In this document: positions 1,053 to 13,653 of the stretch, piece after piece
Position numbering within the stretch: the first letter of the stretch is position 1
How the letters are laid out: each line of letters opens with the position of its first letter
IMG/VR virus record: IMGVR_UViG_3300018022_000004
From: a virus
DNA: 24,724 bases
Strand: one strand, 5' to 3'
The notes under the pieces: generated by a model
Told to the model about the DNA's origin: nothing
Seen by the model: the letters and a program-made list of their open reading frames with translations, nothing else
Databases searched by the model: none
Translations under genes and position numbers: made by a program

Positions 1053-1292
1053 GTCCTCCGGCTCGTCCGGGTGAAGCTCCAGCCACTCCTCCAGCTCCGG
1101 CCATGCCTCGTCCCCGTCCTCCAGCACCCCGAACGACTGCGTCTCCGGCAGGGGCACGTCGTCCATTGTCCCAAACGAGCCAAACCTGACCTCGTCCCAG
1201 GGGAGGCAGTCCTCCACCGGCAGGCCCGCCCGCTTGAGGACGGGGCGCACCGAGAGGGCTATCCCCACTGCCCTGGGGAAGGTGCTACTCAC
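957..1292 (-). CDS. Acidic hypothetical protein, last gene of the minus-strand operon
   Basis: GTG start overlaps the end of 1285-3666. Contains LKRAG (K-x-A) near the N-terminus and a WPELE motif. Confidence 0.55.
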   Translation of the reverse strand: MSSTFPRAVGIALSVRPVLKRAGLPVEDCLPWDEVRFGSFGTMDDVPLPETQSFGVLEDGDEAWPELEEWLELHPDEPEDLPLDGTLLPQAGAVNRTALGPRAYLRRLPVR

Positions 1293-3666
1293 GTGTGCCG
1301 GTGACGAACTTGTACTTCAGGATGAGGGTATCGCTGTCCAGCGTCTCCGCCCGTGCGAAAGCCTCGTAAACGAAGCCCCCGTCCGGCGTGCTGCACCAGA
1401 CCGCTGCCTGCGCCCAGGCATCGTTGATGCACTCCTGTATCTCCGAGTCCGTCAGCCTCTCTACCAGCCTCTTCACTCGGCTGCCCGTGATGCTGAGGGA
1501 CAGCCCCCCGCCGAGTCCCTGGATGACCTGCTGCTCCATCTGGTCTAGCTGGACCTCCCCCGTGCCCGGTATATGGTCGAGGGGCGGCCGGCTGGTCAGC
1601 CTGTAGGCGGAGATGAAGGTGGCGGCTATCTCCGCCATCACCCTCTTCAGGAAGCGGCCTAGCTGTGCCTTGTAGTCCCCCGTGGCTGCCGCCGTCTTGG
1701 GCCTGTCCTGCTCCGAGGCTAGCTGGGAGAGGGCGTCCCCGCCCGGCTGCCCGTCGTAGTGCTGGTAGAACTCCTCCTCGAACAGCCCGCCCCTGTCCTG
1801 GTCCTCCTTGCGGAACGCCCCGCCTGGGGGTGCGTCCTGGCGGTAGCGGTAGAAGCTGCCAGGCTCCGCCCAGTTCCTTATCTCCCCCTCCTCGTGCAGG
1901 GGCGTCCCCTCCACGACCATGGGCTTGCCGCTGTTGCCCAGCGCCCCGCCGGCCGGCGAGGTGCTGGTGTTCGGCCCGGCGTCCACGTAGCTGAGCTTGG
2001 TCAGGGTGTCGAAGGTCCTGTCCAGGGCAGCGGTCAGGCGGTTCTCCTCGTCCTCGTTCCCCGTGAGCAGGGGGCCGTTGAGCGAGTTGCCGCTGACCTC
2101 CGAGGTCATGGGGGCGTTGGTGGCGTTGGGGTAGTCCACAATCTCGTGCTGTATCTCCGGATAGAACTCCCGGAGCGCCTGGCCCGGGAAGAAGAAGTTG
2201 AACCCGGCCCTCCTGCTGCCCAGCTCCCTGGGCGGCATCTCGGGGTTCAGGTGGTCGTCCCCGGCATGCTTCGAGAACATGGCCAGGTCGCTGGTGCCGA
2301 ACCTGCACAGCGGGCAGTGGAACGGCCCGGCATGCCTGCCTGCCGCCCCTGCCTTGACCTGCTCCGGCCTGGGCCCCGGCCCTGCCTGGCTGATGCCCGA
2401 GGTGACAGGCTCGGGGCTGTAGTCCTTCTTCCTGAAGTACCTCATCCAGGAAGGCTCCTCCCTGGGCTTCTCCACGGGGGCCTGCTTGGGCATGCTGGCG
2501 GACAGTATCTCCTCTGCCGTGCCCTCCTCGCCCCCCGGCACCACCAGCTCCACCCCCCCGCCGTGGAAGTGCAGCCTTGCCATGATGCCGTGGCCCCTCA
2601 GGGCCTCCACGGCGCTGGAGGCCTTCTCGTACTCCCCTGCATCCCAGTCCCTTACCGCCCCCCCGCTCTTGCCTATGGGGGTGGCCAGGGAGAACTCCCG
2701 TCCCCACTTGCCGGTGGCGGCCTCCACGAACCTGCCGACGTTCTCCGGCGAAGAGAAGGACGACACCTTCGCCTTTCCCTTGATGGTGTAGCCTACCGTG
2801 CTGCTGCCTGACATGCTTGCCTCCTTGGCCCTCTTGTATCCCGTGCAGTCGCACAGGTTGCAGGAATCGTCCTCGTTGTCGTGGTCGTCCGGGCCGTGGC
2901 TGCACATGCAGGCCCCGCCCTGGCCCAGCACCTTCATGTCCATGCCGGCCGTCTGCCTCCACCTCTCTATGCACTGCCCGCACAGCCTCGCCCTCATGCC
3001 GAAGGCCCTGACACGGCTCTGGGGCGGGCGGGGGCACCTGCCTGCCCTGTGGTCCCCTGCCTCCTCGCAGAAGATGCTCTCGCAGTCGCACTGCCCTTCC
3101 AGCGCCGCCTCTATGCCCATGGCCCTCAGCCCCTCTTTCATGTCCTCGGGAAGCTCGACGTCCTCTCCGGGCTTCTGCCTCATCCTCGCTGCCGCCTCTG
3201 CCGACCTCCTCTGGGTCTTCTCCTCTTCCACTTCCCACTCGGCCATCTCCAGCCAGTTCGGCTCCTGCCACTCCGGCAGCGGCCCGCTCCCCATGTCCGA
3301 CCGGATGAGGTCCATGGCTTCGTTCATGATATCCCCGGCCCTGCCATACTCGCTGGGAGGAGGACTCTTTCCCTCAATCTGCCGGGCCTCGAACTCCCCC
3401 CTCTCGGCTACCGTGTCCTGGAGGCCCTCGTCGAACTCGGCCTTCGCCATGTCCCGGATGTAGCGGAAGTGCTTGGCGAAGAGCTTGGCTACCGCCTTAT
3501 AGATAGCTTCATCCGAGTAGTCCCCAACCGCCCCTGGTGTTTTGTAGAGCGTCCTGTCCAAAGCCCCCCTGACGATCCTGTGCATCAGGTCGTTGGGCCT
3601 GCGCTCGTTGCCTATCATGACGTGGACGTACCACGTCTGCCAGTCTGTCCAGCCCTCGTAGCTCAA
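1285..3666 (-). CDS. Modular putative virion/head protein (793 aa) with Zn-binding mini-domains and K/R-x-A boundaries
   Basis: Long ORF with phage-like codon use whose start overlaps the upstream stop. Modules CDC..C..H..C, CMCSH..H..C..CDC and CPLC..H...H. Boundary motifs KEAS, KQA, RHAG, RRAG, KTAA. Confidence 0.85.
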   Translation of the reverse strand: MSYEGWTDWQTWYVHVMIGNERRPNDLMHRIVRGALDRTLYKTPGAVGDYSDEAIYKAVAKLFAKHFRYIRDMAKAEFDEGLQDTVAERGEFEARQIEGKSPPPSEYGRAGDIMNEAMDLIRSDMGSGPLPEWQEPNWLEMAEWEVEEEKTQRRSAEAAARMRQKPGEDVELPEDMKEGLRAMGIEAALEGQCDCESIFCEEAGDHRAGRCPRPPQSRVRAFGMRARLCGQCIERWRQTAGMDMKVLGQGGACMCSHGPDDHDNEDDSCNLCDCTGYKRAKEASMSGSSTVGYTIKGKAKVSSFSSPENVGRFVEAATGKWGREFSLATPIGKSGGAVRDWDAGEYEKASSAVEALRGHGIMARLHFHGGGVELVVPGGEEGTAEEILSASMPKQAPVEKPREEPSWMRYFRKKDYSPEPVTSGISQAGPGPRPEQVKAGAAGRHAGPFHCPLCRFGTSDLAMFSKHAGDDHLNPEMPPRELGSRRAGFNFFFPGQALREFYPEIQHEIVDYPNATNAPMTSEVSGNSLNGPLLTGNEDEENRLTAALDRTFDTLTKLSYVDAGPNTSTSPAGGALGNSGKPMVVEGTPLHEEGEIRNWAEPGSFYRYRQDAPPGGAFRKEDQDRGGLFEEEFYQHYDGQPGGDALSQLASEQDRPKTAAATGDYKAQLGRFLKRVMAEIAATFISAYRLTSRPPLDHIPGTGEVQLDQMEQQVIQGLGGGLSLSITGSRVKRLVERLTDSEIQECINDAWAQAAVWCSTPDGGFVYEAFARAETLDSDTLILKYKFVTGTRE

Positions 3667-6600
3667 CGCCTGTCGCCTCCTGGGTCTAGCCCTAGCAGGC
3701 CTTCAGCGGCGTCCCCGGCTGCCCTAATAAGGGAGGCAGCCTTCTTCTCCTTCGGCTCGCTGTTGAGGCCGCCTTCCCCTACCTGCGGCGTCTCCTTCTC
3801 GCCCCATGCTACGGGAGGGAGGTTGGCACCCAGGTCCGCCAGGTCGCCCAGCCCTATCTCCATGTCCACGGCCTCGTCCAGGTCGTCCCCCACCGGGGCG
3901 CATGCCTGCTTTCCCTCTACGAACTTCTTGCAGGGGCACGGTCCTGGCAGTGCTGCGCACCATCCGATGGCATGCTCGTCCCTGTGATGGCCGCACTGGG
4001 CACAGAGGTCGTCTCCAGGAGAGTGCTCGGTCCTGGGGGATACGCCCATGCCTGCGGCCTGCTTCCCGAGGTCCAGCGGGTCGGTCGTCTGGGTTGCCTC
4101 TGGGCTTCCTGCCAGCTCCGCCTTGGACTTGCCCCCTACCCCCTTCTTGGCCTCCTCTATGTCCGGCGACACGGACTGGTCGGCCTGCTTCGCCAGCTCG
4201 ATGGGGTCCCTGGTCTGGACGGACTCGGGGCTGTTAGAGAGGCACTCCTTAGCACCGTGCTCCAGCCTCTCCCCTGCGCCGGAGAGGTCCTTCTGGATGC
4301 CCTCCGCCTTCTTCGGGGCAGGCTGGGCCCGTACCTTCTCGCAGTTGCACGGCCCTGCCTCGTGCCTGTAGCCCGTGCAGGCAGGGTGGGCGGTCTTGCA
4401 GAGGGAGCACCCGCACCCCACCCTGCGGTCGTCCGCCTTCTTGTCCTTCTTGTCGTCCTTCTTCTCCTTCGGCCCGTCGCCGGGCGGGAGCTTCGACTTC
4501 ACCTTGGAGGTGCCGCCGTCCAGGGAGATGGAGATGTTGATGTCCCCGTGCTCCGTGGCCAGCCTGGGCACCCCGCCTGCGTCCTCGCCCTTCTTCTGGT
4601 CCGCCACGGCGCAGGGGTTGGTGGTCTCCGGCACCTTGGCGGGGGGTGCCTCCGTCTCCGCCTTCGCCTGGGCCACCTCGGGCTGTACCGGGGCCGCTGT
4701 CTTGAAGCGGGCCATGGCCTCGGCGAAGATGTCGCCGAACTCCTGCACGCTGGACTGGCGGTTCCTGCGCAGCCATGCCTCCTTCCTCCTTGTCTCCTGC
4801 CTGCTCCTTTCGGAGGCCGCTACGCCCATGCTGCCCGGCAGCGGGGCGGCTATCTCCTCCGCCACCTCCTCCTGGGGCAGGTTGCCGTGCCCCCCTGTCT
4901 CGACGAAGGTCTCAAGCTCAAGCTGTATCCTGTCCACTGCGTCTGCGGCCTCGGAGAAGTCGTCCATGTTGTAGGCACGCTCCAGCTCGGTCCTTATGTC
5001 CTCAAGCGCCGGGCTTTCGCTCCCCTCCAGGGCGTCGAAGGCATGCTTGATGTCGTCCTTCGGGTCCGTCTCGGAGTAGCTGCTGAAGAACCCCTCCAGC
5101 GCCCTCAGGGAGTCCTCGGCCTTCGTGACGTCGTGGTAGCCCGCCACCTTAGCGCTGGCCTGCTTCGATGCAAAGGATAGCGACAACACTTCTGACCTGG
5201 AGGGAACTTCCCTCTTCTCTAGCTTCCTGCTCTCTTCTGTGGACATGGACCTCCAGCCGCACGGGCAGGCGAACTGCTCATCCTCCGGGCGGGACTTATG
5301 GGCGGTGCCCCCGCACTGGGGGCAGCGCATCATACAGTCGGAGGTCTTCCTGAGCGCTACCCTCCTGCCTAGCCCGAGCCATTCGCCCACCACCTCACGC
5401 ACGTCGGGGGCATAGAACTCCCTGTGTGACAGGCCAGCGGTCTTGGGCTTCTCGGCGTCGGTCTTGGGGTGTATGGTGCCCTCCCCGCCCTCCTCGCTTG
5501 CCGGGTTGTCCGCCGTGTCGGCCCGCTTCGCCGCAGCCTCCTTCTTCTCCTCCTTCTTCTCGTCCTTGGCGATGTCCCCCTTGTGCTCGCACCACCCGCA
5601 GGTGCAGTCCGCAGGGTGGACCCCGTAGCCCTTCTTCAGGGCAGCGGTCACGAACTGCCGGTTGTACGCCTGGCAGCGGGGGCAGCCGTCGATGTGCTGG
5701 TTGTAGACGGAGGCCATGCTGAGCCTCCTGGCCCCTGGACACTCCGGGTCGATGACCATCCATGCCCCTGCGACCTTGTACGCCGCCCGCCTCGGGGCCT
5801 CTCCCATCTCGTCTATGCTGTACTGCTCCGAGGAGTTCTCGAAGTAGTAGTTTACCAGCCCCTCCCAGTCCTCGTCGGCGGCGAGGGCCCTGGCCTGCTC
5901 GTCCTCCTCCCAGTCGATGTCCCCCGCCATCTTGTCCTTGACGTAGCCGAGGACGAACTGGAATGCCTCCTCGTAGGTGGGGAACTCCTGCACGATGGCA
6001 CCTCTGTTGCTCCAGGAGTACCTGGTCTCGTTAATCCAGGCCACCCAGGACCCCTGCTTCCTCGACGAGCCGGAGTGGGCGTGCATGTCCTGGAGGTGCT
6101 TCTTGGCCGCCCCCTCGGACGTGTGGCTGGACAGAATCTTGCCCGTCCTGTGCGACTTGACGCACCACTCCGCCAGCTCCCCCTTGGAGTTCCTGTGCCC
6201 CTTGCAGAAGGACACGTAGGCCACCTTGGACAGAGAGGCGTTCTTGTCGGGGGCCAGCTCCGGCTCCTCGCCCCTGGTGTTCCTCTTCTCCTGGTCGGTC
6301 TTGGGGTCCATCGCCCCCTCCCCGCCCCTCTCGTTGGCAGGGTTGTCGGCGGTGTCCGCCGTCTTCGGGTACTCGGCCTCCACCCGCTTCTTCTCGCTGC
6401 TGCCGCATGCGGGGCACTTCACCGGGCTGCCATGCTCCTTCAGGCAGTTCAGGCACTTGTACTTGGCCGCAGCCCCGGCCTGCTTCCCGGCAGGCTCTAC
6501 CTCCCATCCCCCACGGCTGAGGCCTATGCCCTCGCCCTGCTTCTCCATGATGTGGCCCAGGCACTCCTCCATGGTGCAGGGGCCGTGGACTATCTGGTTG

Positions 6601-7964
6601 TCCTGCTTGACCACGTAGGACTCCCCCTTCGGGGCATGCACGAGCGCCTGGTGCTCCGGGCTGGACTCGGGCGACGCCGGGTCGGGGTAGTTGGCATGCT
6701 CGTCCAGGGCCTCCATGCCCTCGGACATGCCGCTGACGTACTCCTGCTGCCTCCCCATCTCCTCCTCGGTCATGGGGGTGGAGGGCATGGCGTGCGGCCT
6801 GAGGTCCGCCGCCTCCTTGCAGGCGGTGTAGCACTTCTCGCACTGCGCCCTGCGGCACTTGAGGCAGAGCCTCGCCCCGCCGCAGCCGCAGTCGGCGCAC
6901 CTGCCGGCCGCCTTCTTCTCCGCCTTCTCCTGCCGCTTGGTCTCCTTCTTGTGCTCCTTCTCCCTCTGCTTGGTCTCCTTCTTGCTGAGGGCCTGCCCGC
7001 AGGAGGGGCAGCTCCCGTCCCCCCTGGCCGCCCTGTACTCGCCGCAGGTGTTGCAGTAGAGGGGCTTGTCCCCTGCCGTCTTGGGCCCGGTGCCGTCGTC
7101 GGCCCTGGGGACCTCTGCGCTGGCGTCGGGCTTCTTGTACTCCTTCTCGGCCGCCTCGGCCGGGGACTTGGTGTCGTGCTTCAGCGCCTTCCCCAGCGCC
7201 TCGCCCAGGGACTCGAACACGTTCATCTCGGACGGCTCAAGCTGCTCCTTGGCGATGGCGTCCGCTGTCTTGGCGGTCAGGAACACCCTGTCCCTATTGG
7301 CGGCCGCCTTCATCAGCTCGGGGTAGGCCCGGAAGGGGCTTTCCGTGGCCGCCGGGTAGGTCAGCTTGGGCGTGATGTCCGTCACGTCGAACTTCCAGGT
7401 GTCCACGGTGGTCATCAGGGAGTCGAAGCCGCTGCTGACCGCAGGGTTGAAGTAGCATGCGAACACCAGGTGCCGCAGGAGGTCCGTGAGCTTGGCGTCG
7501 TCGTCCGTGTACTGGAAGCACACGTACTCCCTTATGCCCCCCCATGCCGGGGCGAACACCACCAGGCTGGCCAGCTTGCCGTCCACGGTGAAGGCCTGCT
7601 CCTTGAGGGCCTTGAGGTGCCCCTCCACGTCCGTGGTCTCGTCGAACTCGCTGCCCGTCCTCAGGCTGACGAGGTCCGCCATCTCCTCGCCGAGGTTCAG
7701 GAGCCTGACCGCCGTGCCGTAGAGGAGGGCGACCGGGAAGTCCTCGGGGCTGTCGCACACAGAGGCCGGCACGACGTAGAGGCACCCGATGCGGATGTTC
7801 TGGCGGAAGCCGTGGTAGAAGACCTCCAGGCTGCGCACCTCGCCGGAGGAGCTGGCCTGCTTCTCGCCCTCCTTCACCGCCTCCACGACCTTCTGGAGCA
7901 GCCCCTCGTTCACCTGGAACGACTGGAAGCTCTTGATTGCTATGCTGTTTCCGCTGACGGCCAT
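3663..7964 (-). CDS. Giant modular putative virion polyprotein (1433 aa)
   Basis: SD GAGGAGG upstream. N-terminal globular region (~230 aa), then about 9 Cys/His clusters and charged segments separated by about 23 K-[TQVKRE]-A motifs (manual count). Internal duplicated modules. Confidence 0.9.
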   Translation of the reverse strand: MAVSGNSIAIKSFQSFQVNEGLLQKVVEAVKEGEKQASSSGEVRSLEVFYHGFRQNIRIGCLYVVPASVCDSPEDFPVALLYGTAVRLLNLGEEMADLVSLRTGSEFDETTDVEGHLKALKEQAFTVDGKLASLVVFAPAWGGIREYVCFQYTDDDAKLTDLLRHLVFACYFNPAVSSGFDSLMTTVDTWKFDVTDITPKLTYPAATESPFRAYPELMKAAANRDRVFLTAKTADAIAKEQLEPSEMNVFESLGEALGKALKHDTKSPAEAAEKEYKKPDASAEVPRADDGTGPKTAGDKPLYCNTCGEYRAARGDGSCPSCGQALSKKETKQREKEHKKETKRQEKAEKKAAGRCADCGCGGARLCLKCRRAQCEKCYTACKEAADLRPHAMPSTPMTEEEMGRQQEYVSGMSEGMEALDEHANYPDPASPESSPEHQALVHAPKGESYVVKQDNQIVHGPCTMEECLGHIMEKQGEGIGLSRGGWEVEPAGKQAGAAAKYKCLNCLKEHGSPVKCPACGSSEKKRVEAEYPKTADTADNPANERGGEGAMDPKTDQEKRNTRGEEPELAPDKNASLSKVAYVSFCKGHRNSKGELAEWCVKSHRTGKILSSHTSEGAAKKHLQDMHAHSGSSRKQGSWVAWINETRYSWSNRGAIVQEFPTYEEAFQFVLGYVKDKMAGDIDWEEDEQARALAADEDWEGLVNYYFENSSEQYSIDEMGEAPRRAAYKVAGAWMVIDPECPGARRLSMASVYNQHIDGCPRCQAYNRQFVTAALKKGYGVHPADCTCGWCEHKGDIAKDEKKEEKKEAAAKRADTADNPASEEGGEGTIHPKTDAEKPKTAGLSHREFYAPDVREVVGEWLGLGRRVALRKTSDCMMRCPQCGGTAHKSRPEDEQFACPCGWRSMSTEESRKLEKREVPSRSEVLSLSFASKQASAKVAGYHDVTKAEDSLRALEGFFSSYSETDPKDDIKHAFDALEGSESPALEDIRTELERAYNMDDFSEAADAVDRIQLELETFVETGGHGNLPQEEVAEEIAAPLPGSMGVAASERSRQETRRKEAWLRRNRQSSVQEFGDIFAEAMARFKTAAPVQPEVAQAKAETEAPPAKVPETTNPCAVADQKKGEDAGGVPRLATEHGDINISISLDGGTSKVKSKLPPGDGPKEKKDDKKDKKADDRRVGCGCSLCKTAHPACTGYRHEAGPCNCEKVRAQPAPKKAEGIQKDLSGAGERLEHGAKECLSNSPESVQTRDPIELAKQADQSVSPDIEEAKKGVGGKSKAELAGSPEATQTTDPLDLGKQAAGMGVSPRTEHSPGDDLCAQCGHHRDEHAIGWCAALPGPCPCKKFVEGKQACAPVGDDLDEAVDMEIGLGDLADLGANLPPVAWGEKETPQVGEGGLNSEPKEKKAASLIRAAGDAAEGLLGLDPGGDRR
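4056..4232 (-). repeat. Duplicated module end SPExxQTxDPxxLxKQA (copies 4056-4106 and 4182-4232)
   Basis: SPESVQTRDPIELAKQA vs SPEATQTTDPLDLGKQA; both end in KQA. Confidence 0.8.
5448..6359 (-). repeat. Duplicated 25-aa module ADTADNPAxExGGEGxxxPKTDxEK (copies 5448-5522 and 6285-6359)
   Basis: Direct comparison of the translations. Each copy begins at the Ala of a K-x-A motif (KRA, KTA). Confidence 0.85.
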
Positions 7965-7965
7965 T

Positions 7966-8544
7966 TTACTTCCTCCTCAAGCCCGTGTCTACCTGCTGAA
8001 TCTCCCTGCGGAGGGCCTGCTCCCCCGCCTTGCAGATGTCCCTGTACTGCTGCATGATGTTGTTCTTGTGGTCCTCCAGGACCCCGCCCTCCCGTAGCGC
8101 CTGGCAGAACCAGTCCACCATGCGCCCCGTGAGCAGCTTGACCTTTGCCCCGTCCAGGTTGAGCACGTCCCGCTTGCTGAGCATCTCCGTGTCCAGGAGG
8201 GAGGTGCGAAGCTCCTTCAGGTACTTTATAAGCTCGGAGTTCGCCTTGAAGGTGTTGCTGTTGCACTGCGAGGTGTCCACCCTCACCACCCACTGCGCCT
8301 TGACTATCCGGGAGAGCTGGACGGTTATCTTCCGGCTTATCTCTGCCGGGTCGCTGTCCGGGTCCTCGATGAGGGCGGTTATCTCGTCGATGCCCGAGGT
8401 GTCGGCCTCGGGGAGGGCACCCTTGTGCAGCTCCCCGTCCTTGACCTCCAGCTTGGAGGGGGCGGCGGCCTTGAACCCCGCTACCCCGTCCCCCACGTCG
8501 AAGCCGGTCTCCGTCGCCGTCGCTGTCACGCCGTCCCCTGCCAT
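7966..8544 (-). CDS. Hypothetical alpha-helical protein (192 aa)
   Basis: ATG overlaps the HNH stop (TAATG) and its stop abuts the next start. Amphipathic-helix pattern; no recognised family. Confidence 0.85.
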   Translation of the reverse strand: MAGDGVTATATETGFDVGDGVAGFKAAAPSKLEVKDGELHKGALPEADTSGIDEITALIEDPDSDPAEISRKITVQLSRIVKAQWVVRVDTSQCNSNTFKANSELIKYLKELRTSLLDTEMLSKRDVLNLDGAKVKLLTGRMVDWFCQALREGGVLEDHKNNIMQQYRDICKAGEQALRREIQQVDTGLRRK

Positions 8545-9101
8545 TAGATTTCACCCACGGTGGGCACGCTGCCCACATGGCTTGCCTGTATGAGGAGAAT
8601 ATGCTCCAGGAACTTATCCATGGGCATATCTCCTTTCATACGATTGCAGACTGAACAGCAAGGAGTTACATTCCCCACTTCGTATCCTCGGCTGCTATCA
8701 AGCCTGTCTATACCGTTAAGACCGTTCATGGGGAGGCTGCCACAGTAATGACATTTCCTCGTAATAAGGTCTTCAAAAGCCTCCTTGGATAGACCCCATA
8801 CCCTCTTTTTCTTCTGACAGCGGTATAGGTAGTCATTCCAGGCCGCATTCTTAGCCGCTCGCCCGTCTGGGAGCAGGTTATTTTTCCCATATTCGGAGGC
8901 TACCTCCCTTTGCAGGCAACCGCAACTCCTGGTATTATGTGTGACAAGCGCCACTCCAGGCACTACCGTCTTTTCTCCACAGACACACAGGCAGCCCCAA
9001 AGTGGCTGACCGTGCCTGTTCTTGCCAGCATACCCCTTGACGGTCAAACGCTCAAAAACTCGTGTCGTCAAGTCTCGGATTCTTCCATTCGGTAACTGCA
9101 T
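8544..9101 (-). CDS. Free-standing HNH (homing) endonuclease
   Basis: N-terminal DL...F.RLTV...W.C.C.CG...SCGC Zn/DNA-binding segment. C-terminal CHYCG...GIDRLDSSRGY..GNV.PCC..CN.MK HNH core. Visibly lower GC than the flanks. Confidence 0.9.
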   Translation of the reverse strand: MQLPNGRIRDLTTRVFERLTVKGYAGKNRHGQPLWGCLCVCGEKTVVPGVALVTHNTRSCGCLQREVASEYGKNNLLPDGRAAKNAAWNDYLYRCQKKKRVWGLSKEAFEDLITRKCHYCGSLPMNGLNGIDRLDSSRGYEVGNVTPCCSVCNRMKGDMPMDKFLEHILLIQASHVGSVPTVGEI

Positions 9102-10842
9102 CTTCCTTGTCCTTGTTCAGCTCTATGTCCTCCGCCCTGGGCTTGTTCACCAGGTCGTACTCCCTCATCAGGGCCGCTGCGTCGGTGGGCGGGGCAGAGG
9201 CGGTCTTCCTGCCCGTCTGCTCCATGCCCGGGAAGCTCAGCAGGGTGCCGCCCGTCAGCCCGCAGTGCATGTCCTGGCGGTACACGCAGTCGGCGCACTT
9301 TATGGCCCCGACGATGGCGTTGCTGACGCCTAGCTTCTGCTTCAGCAGGCGGCAGTCGATCTGGGACAGGCGTACCTTGGTGCCCTTGTCCCTCAGGGAG
9401 GCCACGAACTGCTTGACGGCGCTGCCTGCCTGGACCGAGCCTACCTTCAGGCTTCCCCTCCGGTATATCTCCTCCAGGGCCACCCCCCTCTTGTGCATCG
9501 CCTCGACCGTGTCGGCGCTGAACCCGGAGGACGCCTCGTGGTGCTCCTCCCTCGCCTGCTCCACGGTCTTAGCGGACACCTTCTGCACCGTCCTGCCGAC
9601 CATCCTTACCTGCTCTACCCTCTGCGGCTCACGGTTGGCCAGGGCGACGAGCGCTGCCCGCTTGCTGGCGGCCGGCACGCCTGCCGTCAGCCTGTTGACG
9701 ACCGCCCGCAGCTCCTCGGCGTTGGCCACCACCGGCAGGTGGTAGAGGTTGCAGGCCTTGTTCCTGAAGAAGGCGCAGCCCTCGCAGGCCGGCACCTTCT
9801 TGACGCTGGCGGCACGGGGGGCTATCCCCGCAGCCTTCCAGGCATTGTGCTGCCTCACGCAGTCGGCGCTGGTCTTCGGCTCGCCGGGGCTAACCCCACG
9901 GCGCTTCGCCATGCATTCGTCGCAGAGATAGGCCTTGAACGCCTCCCCCTCCAGGTTGGCCCAGCCGCCGCCTTGCTCCCCGAAAATCTTCTTCCTCCGG
10001 CATCCCGTGCATTCGGCATAGAACGGATGGCCCGTGACCGGCTGCCAGTTGTCTGCTACCTTCCTCCCCCCGCTCTTGGGCATCTGCCCTAGGTTGCGGC
10101 TGCACTGGGGACAGTAGTCGATGCTGTGCCGCCTCTCCGGCTTGACATCCTTGTTACACTTCGGGCAGAACGCCTTCTCTTCGGCCCCGACCTTCTCCCT
10201 CTCGTACGTGGGGCTGTGCTCGTCCATGTAGGCGTTGGGCTCAAGGTACGCCATGCCCAGGAGGCCCTGGTTCTGGTTGAGGTAGTTCATGCCCATGTTG
10301 TCCTTCTTGTTGAGCAGCTCTATCTCGGCCAGCTTCTCAAGCTGGGCGGCTACCCTGGCCGGGGGCGTGCCCTGGTTGAGGAGCCTCTTGACATAGGCCA
10401 CCGCCTCCTCGTCGGAGCGGTTGCGGTTGGCGACCCCCTCCCTCCCGTGCTCGTCCTTGGACGTGGCCTCGGACCTTGCCCGGTCCAGGCTCATGGTTAC
10501 TTCCTCGAACAGGGACTCGTCGTCCCCACGGCTGTTGCGGTAGTCGTCCGAGCGGACGCCGGAGGTCGTCCTGCGGGGGGACATGCCAATCCTCGGCAGG
10601 GCGTTCTCCTTCTCGTCCAGGCGGTTGAGCAGCGTGGCGGACCTGCTGGTCGGGGGCACCGGGGTGTGGTGGGAGTCCCCTGCCTCGTCGTCCAGGAAGC
10701 CGCTGTCCACGTACTCGTGCGCCCATCCTGCGACCTCGTCCCCGGACTTCTGGGCGTCCTTCAGGCCCGTGTCCTCCCAGTCCGGCTCCCTGTCGTCCAG
10801 GAAGCTGTCGATTATCGACGAGTATGTCTTTTCGTTAGCCAT
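9052..10842 (-). CDS. Cys-rich modular putative virion protein (596 aa)
   Basis: SD GGAAGG upstream. CxxC modules bracketed by KVG, KVA and KTS. Two similar Cys clusters (CEGC.F....C.LY.L and CADC.Y....C.LTG). KTAS near the C-terminus. Confidence 0.85.
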   Translation of the reverse strand: MANEKTYSSIIDSFLDDREPDWEDTGLKDAQKSGDEVAGWAHEYVDSGFLDDEAGDSHHTPVPPTSRSATLLNRLDEKENALPRIGMSPRRTTSGVRSDDYRNSRGDDESLFEEVTMSLDRARSEATSKDEHGREGVANRNRSDEEAVAYVKRLLNQGTPPARVAAQLEKLAEIELLNKKDNMGMNYLNQNQGLLGMAYLEPNAYMDEHSPTYEREKVGAEEKAFCPKCNKDVKPERRHSIDYCPQCSRNLGQMPKSGGRKVADNWQPVTGHPFYAECTGCRRKKIFGEQGGGWANLEGEAFKAYLCDECMAKRRGVSPGEPKTSADCVRQHNAWKAAGIAPRAASVKKVPACEGCAFFRNKACNLYHLPVVANAEELRAVVNRLTAGVPAASKRAALVALANREPQRVEQVRMVGRTVQKVSAKTVEQAREEHHEASSGFSADTVEAMHKRGVALEEIYRRGSLKVGSVQAGSAVKQFVASLRDKGTKVRLSQIDCRLLKQKLGVSNAIVGAIKCADCVYRQDMHCGLTGGTLLSFPGMEQTGRKTASAPPTDAAALMREYDLVNKPRAEDIELNKDKEDAVTEWKNPRLDDTSF

Positions 10843-10866
10843 TTTCCAGCCCCTTCCTTGCGTCTA

Positions 10867-11157
10867 CTAGAACGTGAGGTCCCCCAGGATGTCCTCAAGG
10901 AACCCTGCCGGGTTGTCCTGGGGCGCTGCCGCCAGACTCTCCCCGTTGTCGATCTCGTTCCCCACCAGCCTGACTATCTTGTTGCCCCTCACCTGCCAGA
11001 AGTCCCTGGTGGACTCGCATATGAAGGTGTTGCCTGCGCACCTCTGGAGGCCCATGGAGGCGGCCTTGCGCAGCACCCCCGTGCTCCCCCTGGGGAGGTG
11101 GTTGGACAGCCCTGCTGCCCCCACCCCGAACGGCACCTGTACCCAAAGCCTGCCCAT
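10867..11157 (-). CDS. Small hypothetical protein (96 aa), first gene of the minus-strand operon
   Basis: TAGGAGAAGGAT SD before ATG; contains RKAAS. Confidence 0.8.
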   Translation of the reverse strand: MGRLWVQVPFGVGAAGLSNHLPRGSTGVLRKAASMGLQRCAGNTFICESTRDFWQVRGNKIVRLVGNEIDNGESLAAAPQDNPAGFLEDILGDLTF

Positions 11158-11163
11158 ATCCTT

Positions 11164-11187
11164 CTCCTAAGGATGGTTCCGGTAGTC
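11164..11187 (-). promoter_or_regulatory. Candidate late promoter GACTACC-N11-TAGGAG
   Basis: Same layout as AATTATC-N11-TAGGAG at 16308-16331. Both head putative virion gene blocks. TAGGAG also serves as the SD. Confidence 0.3.
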
Positions 11188-11192
11188 GCTGA

Positions 11193-11226
11193 TTTCCGTT
11201 TTTTTACCCCGTTTCGGGTGTATAGT
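11193..11226 (+). promoter_or_regulatory. Promoter motif copy (TTTCCG...GTATAGT)
   Basis: GTATAGT-ACAGGC-ATG closely matches GTATAGT-CAAGGC-ATG at 633-618. A weaker upstream element sits at the same 27-nt offset. Confidence 0.55.
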
Positions 11227-11232
11227 ACAGGC

Positions 11233-11313
11233 ATGCGGGAGGACTCAGGCCCCCCGTGCATCCTAGCTTACTGTGGGGAGGACAGAAACCCTATGCTCTG
11301 CCTCGGCGTCTAA
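11233..11313 (+). CDS. Possible leaderless 26-aa peptide (MREDSGPPCILAYCGEDRNPMLCLGV)
   Basis: ATG lies exactly 6 nt after GTATAGT, as for the genes starting at 620 and 23200. Confidence 0.3.
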   Translation: MREDSGPPCILAYCGEDRNPMLCLGV

Positions 11314-11406
11314 GAAGATGCCGGTATTCCCGTAGAATCCGGTATTAGGCTTGGACGGGCGCAGCTCTGCCCGTAACCGTCACAATATATGTCAGGAGGC
11401 CAGAGA

Positions 11407-11970
11407 ATGGAGACTGCTCGTCCCAAGACCCCGCCGTCCCCTGCCCAGGGGAGGTCGGAGACCAACTCCAGCATATACCGCAGGATAGCGCCGGAGGACG
11501 ACGTGCCGGACATGCCGGTAGGAGACCTCGTCGCCAGGGCCATAGCCAGGGCCCTGGCCGAGGAGCTTGCCAGCGACGGCAGGTTCATCGGCAGGCTGGC
11601 CGAGGCCATCGTGGACAGGATGTCGAGGCACGAGGGGGCGGAGTTCACCGAGGCGGACCTCAAGGACGCCACGGACGACACTCCCCCCCGGCCCCTCGTC
11701 CTGCCGGGCGTCGTCCCGATAGACGTTGTCCCCGAACCCGCTCCGGTGGTGGAGGCGGGCACGGGGACTGCCGTCTCCGAGGCCCCCAGGGGGAGGCCCG
11801 ACAGGAAGGCCCTCAGGGGGTCGGCAGCCTACCGGGCACGCAAGGCATGGACCCAGAAGAACTACTACCGCAGGCTGAAGGGCCTGCCCCTCCTTCCCAG
11901 GCCGGACTCGTGGGACGCCCCGAAGAAGAAGGACGAGGCCGAGACGCCCCCCAAGCCGGAGGACGGCTGA
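11407..11970 (+). CDS. Hypothetical protein with a basic C-terminal helix (possible DNA-binding)
   Basis: AGGAGG SD 7 nt before ATG 11407; AYRARKAWTQKNYYRRLKG basic segment. Confidence 0.75.
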   Translation: METARPKTPPSPAQGRSETNSSIYRRIAPEDDVPDMPVGDLVARAIARALAEELASDGRFIGRLAEAIVDRMSRHEGAEFTEADLKDATDDTPPRPLVLPGVVPIDVVPEPAPVVEAGTGTAVSEAPRGRPDRKALRGSAAYRARKAWTQKNYYRRLKGLPLLPRPDSWDAPKKKDEAETPPKPEDG

Positions 11971-12069
11971 GCCGCCTAGGGTAATAAGAGCAGGCAGCGA
12001 AAAGGGGCCGCAGCAGGCCCGCCCAAGGTAGTCTTCGCCCCGACCGTCCCCCCTCCCGAGGGGGCAGTA

Positions 12070-12867
12070 GTGGCCGCCAGGGAGGGGTATACGGGGGACA
12101 GGTTCTACGTGTCCCCGGACGGGCACTTCGTCGGCGACGACGGGTTCGTGGTCCCCAGGGACTTCCAGGAGTTCTACGGGCGCTGGCCCAGCTACATCCG
12201 CAACTGGGTCAAGAAGCGCCTCTACAGCCATGCCCCCGAGGAGGACGTGGAGGACTGGGCGCAGGACCTCCTCATGCACCTGCAATTCCTGCCTGCGGAG
12301 TCCAAGCACCGTGATGCCGGGAAGAGCGACGTCATCCAGACCTTCAACCCCTTCCAGCAGTACGGGGCCTCGGAGCGCAGGTTCAGGAACTACATCAACT
12401 TCTGCCTCAACAACAAGTTCAGGACCATGGGGGGCAAGCTGTCCCGTAACCCCCTGAGCCACCCGGCCAACGTGTCCATCATCCCCGACCACGAGGGGCA
12501 CAGCCATAGCCCCTCGTGCTCGGAGGGCACGGACGAGTACATCTACCAGCACTCCAAGCGCCTGTCCAGGGCCAGCCAGAGGGAGTTCCAGACGCAGGAG
12601 GACCGCCTGTTCACCAGCCAGTTCCTCAGCTTCGTGGCCCTGGCCGACCCGGAGGTGGCCCCCATCCTCGGCGCAGTATGGCAGGCAGGGGGGAGCTTCA
12701 CCGACGCCAGGCGCTTCTGGTGCTCCACGTGCGGGGCGCTGGCCAGCGTCCCCGAGGTGGACTCCGGCAAGCACCTGGGCCATGGCCTGGGCATAGAGCA
12801 GAGGCAGTTCAACCGCTTCCGCAGCAGGCTCAAGGAGCTTGCGGTAAAGTTCGTGGACGAGGACTGA
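12070..12867 (+). CDS. Phage sigma70/ECF-like sigma factor
   Basis: Region-2-like pattern YIRNWVKKRL...EDVEDWAQDLLMHL...FNP...FRNYINFCLNNKFR. Region-4-like end LGIEQRQFNRFRSRLKEL. GTG start with GAGGGGG SD. Confidence 0.65.
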   Translation: MAAREGYTGDRFYVSPDGHFVGDDGFVVPRDFQEFYGRWPSYIRNWVKKRLYSHAPEEDVEDWAQDLLMHLQFLPAESKHRDAGKSDVIQTFNPFQQYGASERRFRNYINFCLNNKFRTMGGKLSRNPLSHPANVSIIPDHEGHSHSPSCSEGTDEYIYQHSKRLSRASQREFQTQEDRLFTSQFLSFVALADPEVAPILGAVWQAGGSFTDARRFWCSTCGALASVPEVDSGKHLGHGLGIEQRQFNRFRSRLKELAVKFVDED

Positions 12868-12889: not shown

Positions 12890-13222
12890 ATGCCGTACAT
12901 AGCCGATAAGGACAGGAAAGCCCTGGACCCGACCATAGAGCTGCTGGCCCGCCAGATAGCCGCCATATCCAGGGGATATGGGTACGACGGGGCGTTCGCC
13001 GGGATACTCAACTACGCCTGCACCACGCTCGCCATGAGGGTGGCCAGGGAGCTGTTCGGCAAGATGCGCTACTGGATAATCGCCATCGTGACGGGGACGT
13101 TCAAGAACATCGCCGACGAGTTCTACCGCAGGGTGGCGTCCCCCTACGAGGACAAGCAGATAGCCAAGTCCGGGGACATCAGGGAATACCAGGAACTCAG
13201 CGAGGAGATAGGGCTGCTATGA
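12890..13222 (+). CDS. DUF6899-like protein
   Basis: MPYI...R, G.LNY..T.L and EFYRR...PYED.....GD signature; AAGGAGG SD. The family name is from recall. Confidence 0.75.
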   Translation: MPYIADKDRKALDPTIELLARQIAAISRGYGYDGAFAGILNYACTTLAMRVARELFGKMRYWIIAIVTGTFKNIADEFYRRVASPYEDKQIAKSGDIREYQELSEEIGLL

Positions 13223-13653
13223 GGGTATACCTGGCAGGGCCGCTGTTCACGGCAGCGGAGAGGGGGTTCAACGAAGAGCTGGCAAGGCACCTGAAGCATG
13301 CCGGGCACGAGGTATGGCTCCCGCAGGACAGGGAGAAGGCACTCATGGACCGGAGTGCCTCCGGGCTGTTCCTCGACGACGTGCTGGGCCTGGACTGGGC
13401 AGAGGCCGTGGTCGCCAACCTGGACGGTGCCGACCCGGACAGCGGGACCTCCTGGGAGTGCGGCTATGCCTATAGGAAGAAGCCCATCGTGGCGTTCAGG
13501 ACGGACATACGGTCAGCAGGCGAGAACAGGGATGCGCCGTGCAACATCATGCCCTGGCAGAGCGCCGGGTACAAGGTCCTGATGCCGCTGGACGGCGTGG
13601 GGGAGATTGCAGGCCGTATCATCGGCTGGCTGCAAGTCCTGGAGAGGAAGTAG
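13219..13653 (+). CDS. Nucleoside 2-deoxyribosyltransferase / nucleotide N-glycosidase family protein
   Basis: VYLAGPLF, LPQ, D...LD.AEAVVA.LDG...DSGT.WECGYA and KPIVAFRTD.R motifs; ATGA overlap with the upstream gene. Confidence 0.9.
   Translation: MRVYLAGPLFTAAERGFNEELARHLKHAGHEVWLPQDREKALMDRSASGLFLDDVLGLDWAEAVVANLDGADPDSGTSWECGYAYRKKPIVAFRTDIRSAGENRDAPCNIMPWQSAGYKVLMPLDGVGEIAGRIIGWLQVLERK

Follow-up and report, generated by a model that had tools for sequence, protein, structure and literature searches.

What does a single three-residue motif do when it recurs 30 times in one viral protein? The question is raised by a 24,724-nt stretch of viral DNA, IMG/VR record IMGVR_UViG_3300018022_000004 (hereafter the window, meaning the whole stretch that was analyzed), whose minus strand encodes a protein of 1433 amino acids (aa) punctuated by Lys-x-Ala (K-x-A). 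A preliminary description of the window correctly gave three open reading frames (ORFs) on the minus strand, at 1285-3666 (793 aa, P0002), 3663-7964 (1433 aa, P0001), and 9052-10842 (596 aa, P0003), and proposed that an Ala-specific maturation protease cuts the encoded proteins at K-x-A into small peptides for loading into the phage head. Here, we conclude from sequence comparisons that K-x-A followed by Asp, Ala, Ser, or Gly is probably a prohead protease site, and that the families of the 1433-aa and 596-aa proteins are probably multi-site, head-internal substrates with cassette-like modules. All of the computational tests suggested in the preliminary description favor its interpretation, whose core the sequence data support well; the cutting itself, the packaging into the head, and the delivery of effectors are inferences.

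K-x-A is enriched in the 1433-aa protein and throughout two protein families

The 1433-aa protein contains 30 K-x-A motifs, against 13.5 expected under a global shuffle of its residues (z = 5.0; expectation between 13.5 and 15.4 over the shuffles). Among all 400 gapped residue pairs of the form X.Y in this protein, K.A has the top-ranked excess. When residues are shuffled only inside windows of 60, 30, or 15 residues, the z-score still lies between 4.4 and 4.8, and, therefore, Lys- and Ala-rich linkers do not explain the excess. The comparison with a composition-matched shuffle, which the preliminary description had recommended as a check, thus comes out in favor of the motif both globally and locally. 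The description had also counted, by hand, about 23 motifs of the form K-[TQVKRE]-A in this protein, and there are exactly 23 (versus 5.0 expected); this residue class was picked post hoc, and plain K-x-A is the basis for our conclusions. That the motif is often followed by a small residue or Asp, as was also remarked, is borne out by Ala, Gly, Asp, or Ser coming next at 24 of the 30 sites.

The signal is found only in the coding frame (30 motifs versus 13.2 expected when codons are shuffled), with 3 and 0 occurrences in the other frames. At the K-x-A sites, Ala is encoded by all four codons (GCC, GCG, GCA, and GCT) in near gene-wide proportions. Given that the signal is frame-specific and codon-neutral, we attribute it to selection at the protein level, and a DNA-level motif as its source is ruled out on the same two grounds. 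Within the window, the plus-strand enzyme genes have no K-x-A excess, as the preliminary description had noted, and neither does a 192-aa protein encoded next to the 1433-aa protein.

To place the proteins in their families, we compared the window with its relatives. The closest of these are five uncultured viral contigs (G001 to G005), among them G001 (52 kb, approximately 90 to 95% protein identity to the window) and G002 (317 kb, or 316,945 bp, with a completeness rating of 99%). Just one relative has been cultured, namely Tunturi_5, a 309-kb myovirus of Tunturiibacter (Acidobacteriota). Because relatives such as G002 and Tunturi_5 are of this size, we conclude that the window is a piece of a giant (soil) phage that has Tunturi_5 as a relative and Bacillus phage G as a more distant one.

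Residues 1-280 of the 1433-aa protein (7125-7964, minus strand) are a conserved domain that defines a family of 63 homologs, which are 820 to 2249 aa long, share 41 to 98% identity, and are mostly encoded on contigs that can reach several hundred kb in length. K-x-A is enriched in 63 of the 63 members (1395 motifs versus 756 expected, or about 1.9-fold; individual ratios, 1.29 to 2.58). The enrichment is specific to the spacing and the order of the two residues: in the same family, KA is found at 1.02, K..A at 1.07, and A.K at 1.17 times expectation. Similarly, K-x-A is enriched in all 81 members of the 596-aa protein family (1107 versus 520, about 2.1-fold), with KA at 0.85 and K..A at 1.25 times expectation. 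On these spacing and orientation controls, together with the local shuffles, we reject explanations of K-x-A by composition, helical periodicity, or repeats.

To describe the residues around the motif, we compiled 1161 K-x-A sites located past residue 290 in the 1433-aa family. If the Ala is taken as P1, the P2 position is enriched in Thr (3.5-fold) and Gln (2.6-fold), and P1′ in Asp (2.4-fold), Ser (1.8-fold), and Ala (1.6-fold). Recognizable repeats account for fewer than 10% of the sites: DTADNP, the commonest sequence after K-x-A in the family, and DTADNE together follow 55 of the 1161 motifs, and no other context follows more than 7. The DTADNP sequence opens a peptide that is conserved over about 30 residues (DTADNP.NE.GGEG...PKTD.EK), always begins right after K-x-A, and is present in two copies in each ortholog examined. 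In the window, the first copy (6279-6365, minus strand) directly follows K-T-A, and the second (5436-5528, minus strand) follows K-R-A and ends in P-K-T-A-G. The peptide could be a binding or targeting element that is exposed by cleavage.

The excess is confined mainly to the two families and to head-morphogenesis proteins

If K-x-A were a site of capsid maturation, it would be expected in other head proteins as well. ORFs that encode 120 aa or more were called in the window, G001, and G002, as well as in parts of G003 and G005 and in 158 kb of Tunturi_5, and the 461 resulting ORFs were ranked by the Poisson probability of their K-x-A excess. The 1433-aa family heads this ranking. The 15 strongest excesses belong to head-type proteins and to the two families, except for two Tunturi_5 proteins, the tail protein gp254 and the tRNA ligase gp296. 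Tunturi_5 contributes gp328, annotated as an ejection protein (19 motifs versus 8.7 expected), and gp332 (16 versus 5.6), the acidic, scaffold-like product of a gene that is flanked by those for the protease and the capsid protein. The proteases of G001, G003, and G005 (6 each versus 1.3 to 1.8) and the G002 portal protein (12 versus 5.8) also stand out, and the scaffold-like proteins of G005 and G001 are near the top of the ranking (16 versus 9.2 in one of them). From the two families come the 596-aa homologs (18 versus 7.5 in Tunturi_5 gp348 and 14 versus 6.0 in another member) and Tunturi_5 gp350, the homolog of the 1433-aa protein (16 versus 9.0).

The top 32 ORFs also hold a few others, some of them unannotated, at P values between 0.01 and 0.07 (including the Tunturi_5 tail protein, the tRNA ligase, and a ribonucleotide reductase). 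In the 429 ORFs below them, K-x-A is as frequent as expected (586 versus 578.6), and, when the G002 proteome is considered alone, the two families and the portal protein lead among the long ORFs. In this comparison, which the preliminary description had suggested, the excess is absent from the rest of the proteome: it is confined mainly to the two families and to head-morphogenesis proteins.

Two further observations concern proteins that share the motif. About 60 residues of Tunturi_5 gp328 (23847-26330) are 60 to 68% identical to a segment of the G002 ortholog of the 1433-aa protein (42977-43153), and, judging by such similarity, individual modules appear to be common to different K-x-A-rich proteins. 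In addition, the gene just upstream of the protease gene (79-2109 in G001, 9078-12185 in G005, and 1147-4263 in G003) encodes a protein with tetratricopeptide repeats and zinc-ribbon motifs, whose longer orthologs have a moderate K-x-A excess (11 versus 5.4 and 11 versus 6.4). This protein may be a further substrate of the same kind.

The candidate protease carries K-x-A at its own termini

The protease gene of G001 is located at 2151-3050, and its product matches phrog_18299 ("head maturation protease," 2e−17) and no Pfam family. Homologs are present in G003, G005, and Tunturi_5 (gp331), and in all four genomes the gene adjoins scaffold-like and capsid genes. The Pfam models for S77, S78, and the HK97 capsid protein detected nothing in the relatives, where PHROG families did match; the S77 model was also silent in control genomes.

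In an AlphaFold model built with 30 diverse homologs, the protease core has predicted local distance difference test (pLDDT) values of about 86 to 98. We compared the model with approximately 48,000 representative solved chains using a structure search other than Foldseek, and found the proteases of varicella-zoster virus (Z = 10.3), phage T4 (gp21; Z = 9.2), human cytomegalovirus (HCMV; Z = 7.8), as well as Kaposi's sarcoma-associated herpesvirus (Z = 6.5). The top Foldseek matches are weak and are likewise herpesvirus proteases. On the basis of this model, the enzyme is predicted to be a serine protease with the fold of herpesvirus assemblins and T4 gp21. No member of the protease family departs from His110 or Ser168, and His194, at a spacing that we take to be like that in the HCMV enzyme, is nearly invariant and may complete a Ser-His-His catalytic triad.

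The family also has invariant Cys residues at positions 178, 181, and 192 and a nearly invariant Cys217. Together with His194, these Cys residues hint at an inserted metal site that would lie past the catalytic Ser and before the domain ends; His194 might then bind zinc along with Cys178, Cys181, and Cys192 and not belong to the triad. We know of no such site in T4 gp21 or in herpesvirus proteases.

The protease family is large: it comprises 1229 clusters at 50% identity, including gp19 of phage G, and tblastn searches with the protease also retrieved about 209 records of Mycobacterium phages and 48 of Erwinia phages. Among 150 representatives that are at most 50% identical to one another, K-x-A is enriched 1.73-fold, and the enrichment is specific to the spacing. 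The motif lies within the first 12 residues in 54 of 93 proteases (versus 5.5 expected), as part of a conserved M-A-F-x-K-x-A start, and K-x-A-S is found within 60 residues behind the catalytic domain in 40 of 111 proteases, where a rough estimate from residue frequencies gives about 3.5. In the C-terminal extensions of the proteases, K-x-A is enriched 1.82-fold, and Ser occupies P1′ at 25% of the sites, 3.3 times its expectation. These terminal sites fall in low-confidence segments of the model (pLDDT below 50 behind the domain), which are presumably flexible.

The preliminary description had advised locating the prohead protease and the major capsid gene and looking for the same motif at the propeptide end. 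In the nearest relatives, the protease was found, with K-x-A at its own N terminus and just behind its catalytic domain, and the motif extends to the scaffold-like protein and the portal protein.

Modules come and go at K-x-A

In the 1433-aa protein (3663-7964, minus strand), the conserved N-terminal domain precedes a hypervariable array, whose mini-domains are separated by K-x-A. The adjoining 793-aa ORF (1285-3666, minus strand) encodes Cys-rich modules and a conserved C-terminal domain (residues 484-793; 1288-2217, minus strand). This domain matches Tunturi_5 gp350 and is found at the C termini of five metagenomic members of the family, including P0033, P0065, P0066, and P0060 (33 to 45% identity). 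Both ORFs correspond to a single polypeptide in P0033, P0060, P0064 to P0066, and Tunturi_5 gp350. The last of these (1080 aa) consists of the N-terminal domain of the 1433-aa protein (42% identity) and the C-terminal domain of the 793-aa protein (34%, E = 4e−41). Judging from these fusions, the two ORFs represent the halves of a single ancestral protein, of which the 793-aa protein is the split-off C-terminal part. At their junction (3663-3680, minus strand), the TTG start codon of the 793-aa ORF overlaps the TGA stop codon of the 1433-aa ORF (TTGA), and a GGAGG ribosome-binding site lies 9 nt upstream; because of this arrangement, we regard the split as genuine and translationally coupled.

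The hypervariable array lies between the conserved ends of the pair and, in the window, includes about nine Cys/His-rich mini-domains. In the arrays of the relatives, Pfam recognizes zinc ribbons, a DnaJ-type Cys repeat, Anti-TRAP, the C-terminal domain of an Xre/MbcA/ParS antitoxin, and a late-transcription coactivator. Residues ~450-475 of the 793-aa protein form a C2H2-like zinc finger (C-x2-C ... H-x5-H; FHCPLC...FSKHAGDDH), which is unusual for a phage protein. The 596-aa protein is homologous to Tunturi_5 gp348; its N-terminal half is variable and contains zinc-ribbon motifs, and its Cys-rich C-terminal domain is conserved. A look-alike search of the ESM Atlas with the N-terminal domain of the 1433-aa protein and the C-terminal domain of the 793-aa protein gave no usable match.

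The 1433-aa proteins of the window and G001 are approximately 95% identical, yet they differ by two clean indels. In G001, an extra zinc-ribbon module is inserted directly after L-A-K-Q-A. In the window, a 51-residue Cys/His module with the hallmarks of zinc binding (residues 1304-1354; 3903-4055, minus strand), which is missing from G001, has G-K-Q-A at both borders and is flanked by a direct DNA repeat, GG(G/A)AAGCAGGC. To evaluate if such events generally coincide with the motif, we gathered clean indels that span 15 aa or more between related family members, merging related events and allowing equivalent gap placements. We found that 10 of the 32 independent indels end exactly after K-x-A, five times the chance expectation of 1.95, and none of 20,000 simulations reached 10. 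The gain and loss of modules exactly at K-x-A, which the preliminary description had put forward as a test, is, therefore, observed. Two of the 10 events are those between the window and G001, and several more events start with K-x-A. Under a strict version that permits no sliding of the alignment, only 6 of 43 indels end after the motif.

Proposed processing of the K-x-A proteins and alternative explanations

We propose that the protease would cut after the Ala of K-x-A, usually in the context K-[T/Q/V/K]-A followed by Asp, Ala, Ser, or Gly. Proteins of the 1433-aa, 793-aa, and 596-aa families would be co-assembled into the prohead, where cuts at many linker sites would free the conserved domains at the termini along with a series of mini-domains of 10 to 150 residues, many of them predicted to bind zinc and some resembling antitoxins in the relatives. 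The short repeats that encode the motif may provide microhomology where modules come and go, and, because of this proposed microhomology, the middle region would behave as an expandable cassette array. More speculatively, and with little confidence, we suggest that the head of this phage-G/Tunturi lineage might load a programmable array of dozens of mini-domains (zinc ribbons, antitoxin-like domains, and others), which an Ala-specific protease of the assemblin type would cut free in the capsid and which would be injected with the DNA as early anti-defense or host-takeover factors, with cassettes swapped by microhomology at the codons of the motif.

Several observations weigh against the protease-site interpretation. 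The window's own 793-aa and 596-aa proteins have K-x-A excesses that are individually not significant (5 versus 3.2 and 7 versus 4.5, respectively), and so the claim that these neighbors show the same punctuation as the 1433-aa protein stands for the 596-aa family as a whole and not for the two copies in the window. The family-wide z-scores are inflated because orthologous sites are not independent, although the direction of the effect is unanimous. K-x-A is also found within some of the Cys-rich modules and conserved domains; for example, the protease domain ends in an FKGAV element, which places one site, probably a structural one, within a conserved fold. The window itself has neither a protease nor a capsid gene, both of which are found in G001, G003, G005, and Tunturi_5. 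The capsid proteins lend no help: their N-terminal K-x-A sites sit in an N-arm that is conserved in its entirety throughout the 120 closest homologs and are, for that reason, uninformative either way, and the capsid protein of phage G has no K-x-A. Searches of the three window proteins against Pfam and PHROGs gave only a sub-threshold match to DUF7249 and no structural family. The AlphaFold model of the N-terminal domain of the 1433-aa protein is poor (pLDDT of 55) and has no Foldseek match at an E value of 0.001 or below, which is not evidence of a new fold. Lastly, the paper on the Tunturi phages reports no virion mass spectrometry.

The same data can be read in other ways. K-x-A could be bound and not cut, serving either as a docking motif (a short element in extended-strand form) that targets proteins to the capsid through a common partner (the protease, the scaffold, or the shell) or as a sequence that caps the linkers between mini-domains. 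The restriction of the enrichment to head-morphogenesis proteins, the strict i/i+2 spacing, and the location at module borders fit binding as well as they fit cleavage, and sites in conserved folded regions, such as FKGAV, fit it too. However, to our knowledge, no capsid-targeting signal recurs 20 to 40 times in one protein, and the preference for small residues at P1′ resembles a protease subsite. Moreover, the motif is located at the extreme N terminus of the protease and, with Ser at P1′, in the low-confidence segment behind its domain, which are the places where proteases of the assemblin and T4 type process themselves (PMC4498786). We consider docking or linker capping rather unlikely. 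A historical by-product of duplicated and shuffled modules and of linkers rich in Lys, Ala, and Glu, with no selection on the motif, seems very improbable. Such an origin would agree with the repeats that start after K-x-A in the 1433-aa protein (DTADNP twice and a DQSV-type unit), with the short DNA repeat that flanks one indel, and with the descent of shared sites among orthologs. It is at odds with the small share of sites in recognizable repeats and with the persistence of the excess under local shuffling. Because other spacings and the reverse order of Lys and Ala stay at about 1.0 to 1.3 times expectation, and because the motif is also enriched in the unrelated protease, scaffold-like protein, and portal protein, as well as in phage G, this explanation is largely refuted.

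Alternatively, the proteins may be cut at K-x-A without being cargo: the middle region could be disposable scaffold or filler that is degraded and expelled before DNA packaging, leaving the mini-domains no role once assembly is over, or the proteins could be cytoplasmic and never packaged. The length of the middle region is as variable (the members range from 820 to 2249 aa) and its turnover as fast as would be expected of weakly constrained filler, and the neighboring scaffold-like proteins share the K-x-A punctuation. In T4, scaffold fragments leave the capsid. They also exit the capsids of herpesviruses (PMC4498786). On the other hand, the modules include recognizable folded units (zinc ribbons, DnaJ-type Cys repeats, and the antitoxin C-terminal domain), and some of them are kept across orthologs of about 50% identity, such as the Cys/His module after K-V-A-Y. 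Recognizable and conserved modules argue for a function and not for where it is exerted, and we regard the filler or cytoplasmic alternative as unlikely. Cleavage of head-internal, multi-site substrates at K-x-A is, in our assessment, the explanation that probably holds.

If the protease-site interpretation is correct, it would establish the cleavage specificity for a very large branch of capsid-maturation proteases, whose 1229 clusters include those of phage G, the largest cultured phage, and of large mycobacteriophage relatives. The link between these phage enzymes and the assemblins of herpesviruses, which are Ala-specific, would then extend from fold to specificity. Furthermore, the interpretation would supply a simple sequence rule for predicting head-internal or ejected proteins of uncultured giant phages, most of which are unannotated, and would reveal a polyprotein-like packing of many small domains in a capsid, with a built-in turnover of cassettes. 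Two cultured phages, Tunturi_5 and phage G, open the K-x-A idea to direct testing.

Gene layout of the window and its relatives

The window has a G+C content of 65%. Between the 1433-aa and 596-aa genes are two further minus-strand genes. The first (7966-8544) encodes the 192-aa protein, a conserved companion that is homologous to Tunturi_5 gp349. The second (8544-9101) encodes an HNH/endonuclease VII-type homing endonuclease (phrog_374, 5.9e−20) that is outside the K-x-A system and overlaps the end of the 596-aa gene by approximately 50 nt. In G002, there is no gene at this position, and the genes for 583-aa and 206-aa proteins abut; because of this absence, the HNH gene looks like a homing-endonuclease insertion.

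Past 11 kb, the plus strand encodes a nucleoside 2-deoxyribosyltransferase, an RNase HII, a topoisomerase-like protein, a radical-SAM enzyme, and a polynucleotide kinase-phosphatase. At 12890-13653 (plus strand), a gene for a DUF6899 protein is immediately followed by that for the nucleoside 2-deoxyribosyltransferase, with RNase HII next, and this group may be a nucleotide-salvage or DNA-modification cluster.

In G002, protease and major capsid genes were not detectable: tblastn searches from Tunturi_5 gave a weak, spurious match in a tRNA-rich stretch. G003 matches G002 over the locus compared (with identical tblastn statistics) and carries both genes near its start. Therefore, the completeness of G002 seems to be overestimated, unless its contig breaks off inside the head module.

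Comparison with known systems

In giant phages, numerous head proteins are cleaved by prohead proteases at motifs of three residues, A-x-E among them, and the propeptide of SPN3US gp53 illustrates multiple cleavage sites in one substrate (PMC10052503). In the literature searched, we came across no prohead protease described as having a K-x-A motif, which is not proof of novelty, given that phage G virion proteomics, which the search did not cover, may already document it. The system proposed here resembles those of phiKZ (gp175), SPN3US (gp245), and T4 (gp21) in having one protease of the assemblin/gp21 fold and in the recurrence of a three-residue motif in the protease, the scaffold, the portal protein, and internal or ejection proteins. 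Unlike the motifs of T4, phiKZ, and SPN3US, which end in Glu (A-x-E, S/A/G-x-E, or L/I-x-E), K-x-A combines a Lys at P3 with an Ala at P1. Known phage substrates mostly lose an N-terminal propeptide, whereas here 20 to 40 sites of predicted cleavage span the whole protein, and there is no sequence similarity between these proteins and the substrates of phiKZ, SPN3US, or T4.

The best structural match of the protease is to the herpesvirus assemblins (UL26 and UL80a). The pseudorabies virus assemblin cuts after Ala, at the R site YLQA-T and the M site VQA-S; assemblin-type proteases process themselves at the N terminus or behind the catalytic domain, and herpesvirus scaffold fragments leave the capsid (PMC4498786). 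The herpesvirus motif of Ala followed by Ser or Thr would resemble the predicted phage site K-x-A-S. Many relatives of the phage enzyme, which are proteins of about 500 aa with K-x-A-S behind the domain and then a scaffold-like extension, also recall the layout of UL26, in which the protease is followed by a release site and the scaffold. The two systems differ at P3, where the phage motif has Lys and herpesviruses have hydrophobic residues at P3/P4, and in the number of sites per substrate (two or few in herpesviruses versus dozens here).

True homologs of the substrates are found in Tunturi_5, where gp348, gp349, and gp350 have the same gene order as in the window and gp348 and gp349 correspond to the 596-aa and 192-aa proteins, respectively. 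Unlike the split pair of the window, gp350 is a fused single protein of 1080 aa, which is much shorter and has a different middle region. The gp348 to gp350 genes adjoin tail-fiber, virion, and terminase genes; this position, the shared motif, and the module in common with gp328 hint indirectly that the proteins may belong to the prohead or virion. The label "DarB-like antirestriction protein" of gp350 stems from automatic Phold annotation, and we rejected it, as Pfam and PHROG searches found no methyltransferase or helicase family in gp350 or in the 1433-aa and 793-aa proteins. In the phage collection, homologs of the 1433-aa, 793-aa, and 596-aa proteins were found only in Tunturi_5 and not, for example, in phage G. 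The head module of phage G is nevertheless related to that of the window's relatives: its capsid protein gp27 is 33% identical, and its protease gp19 is homologous. In gp19, K-x-A is found 8 times versus 2.4 expected, including sites at the N terminus and, past the domain, two of the form K-[VI]-A-S, and phage G gp21 (7 versus 2.8) and the portal protein gp14 (5 versus 2.3) carry the motif in excess as well.

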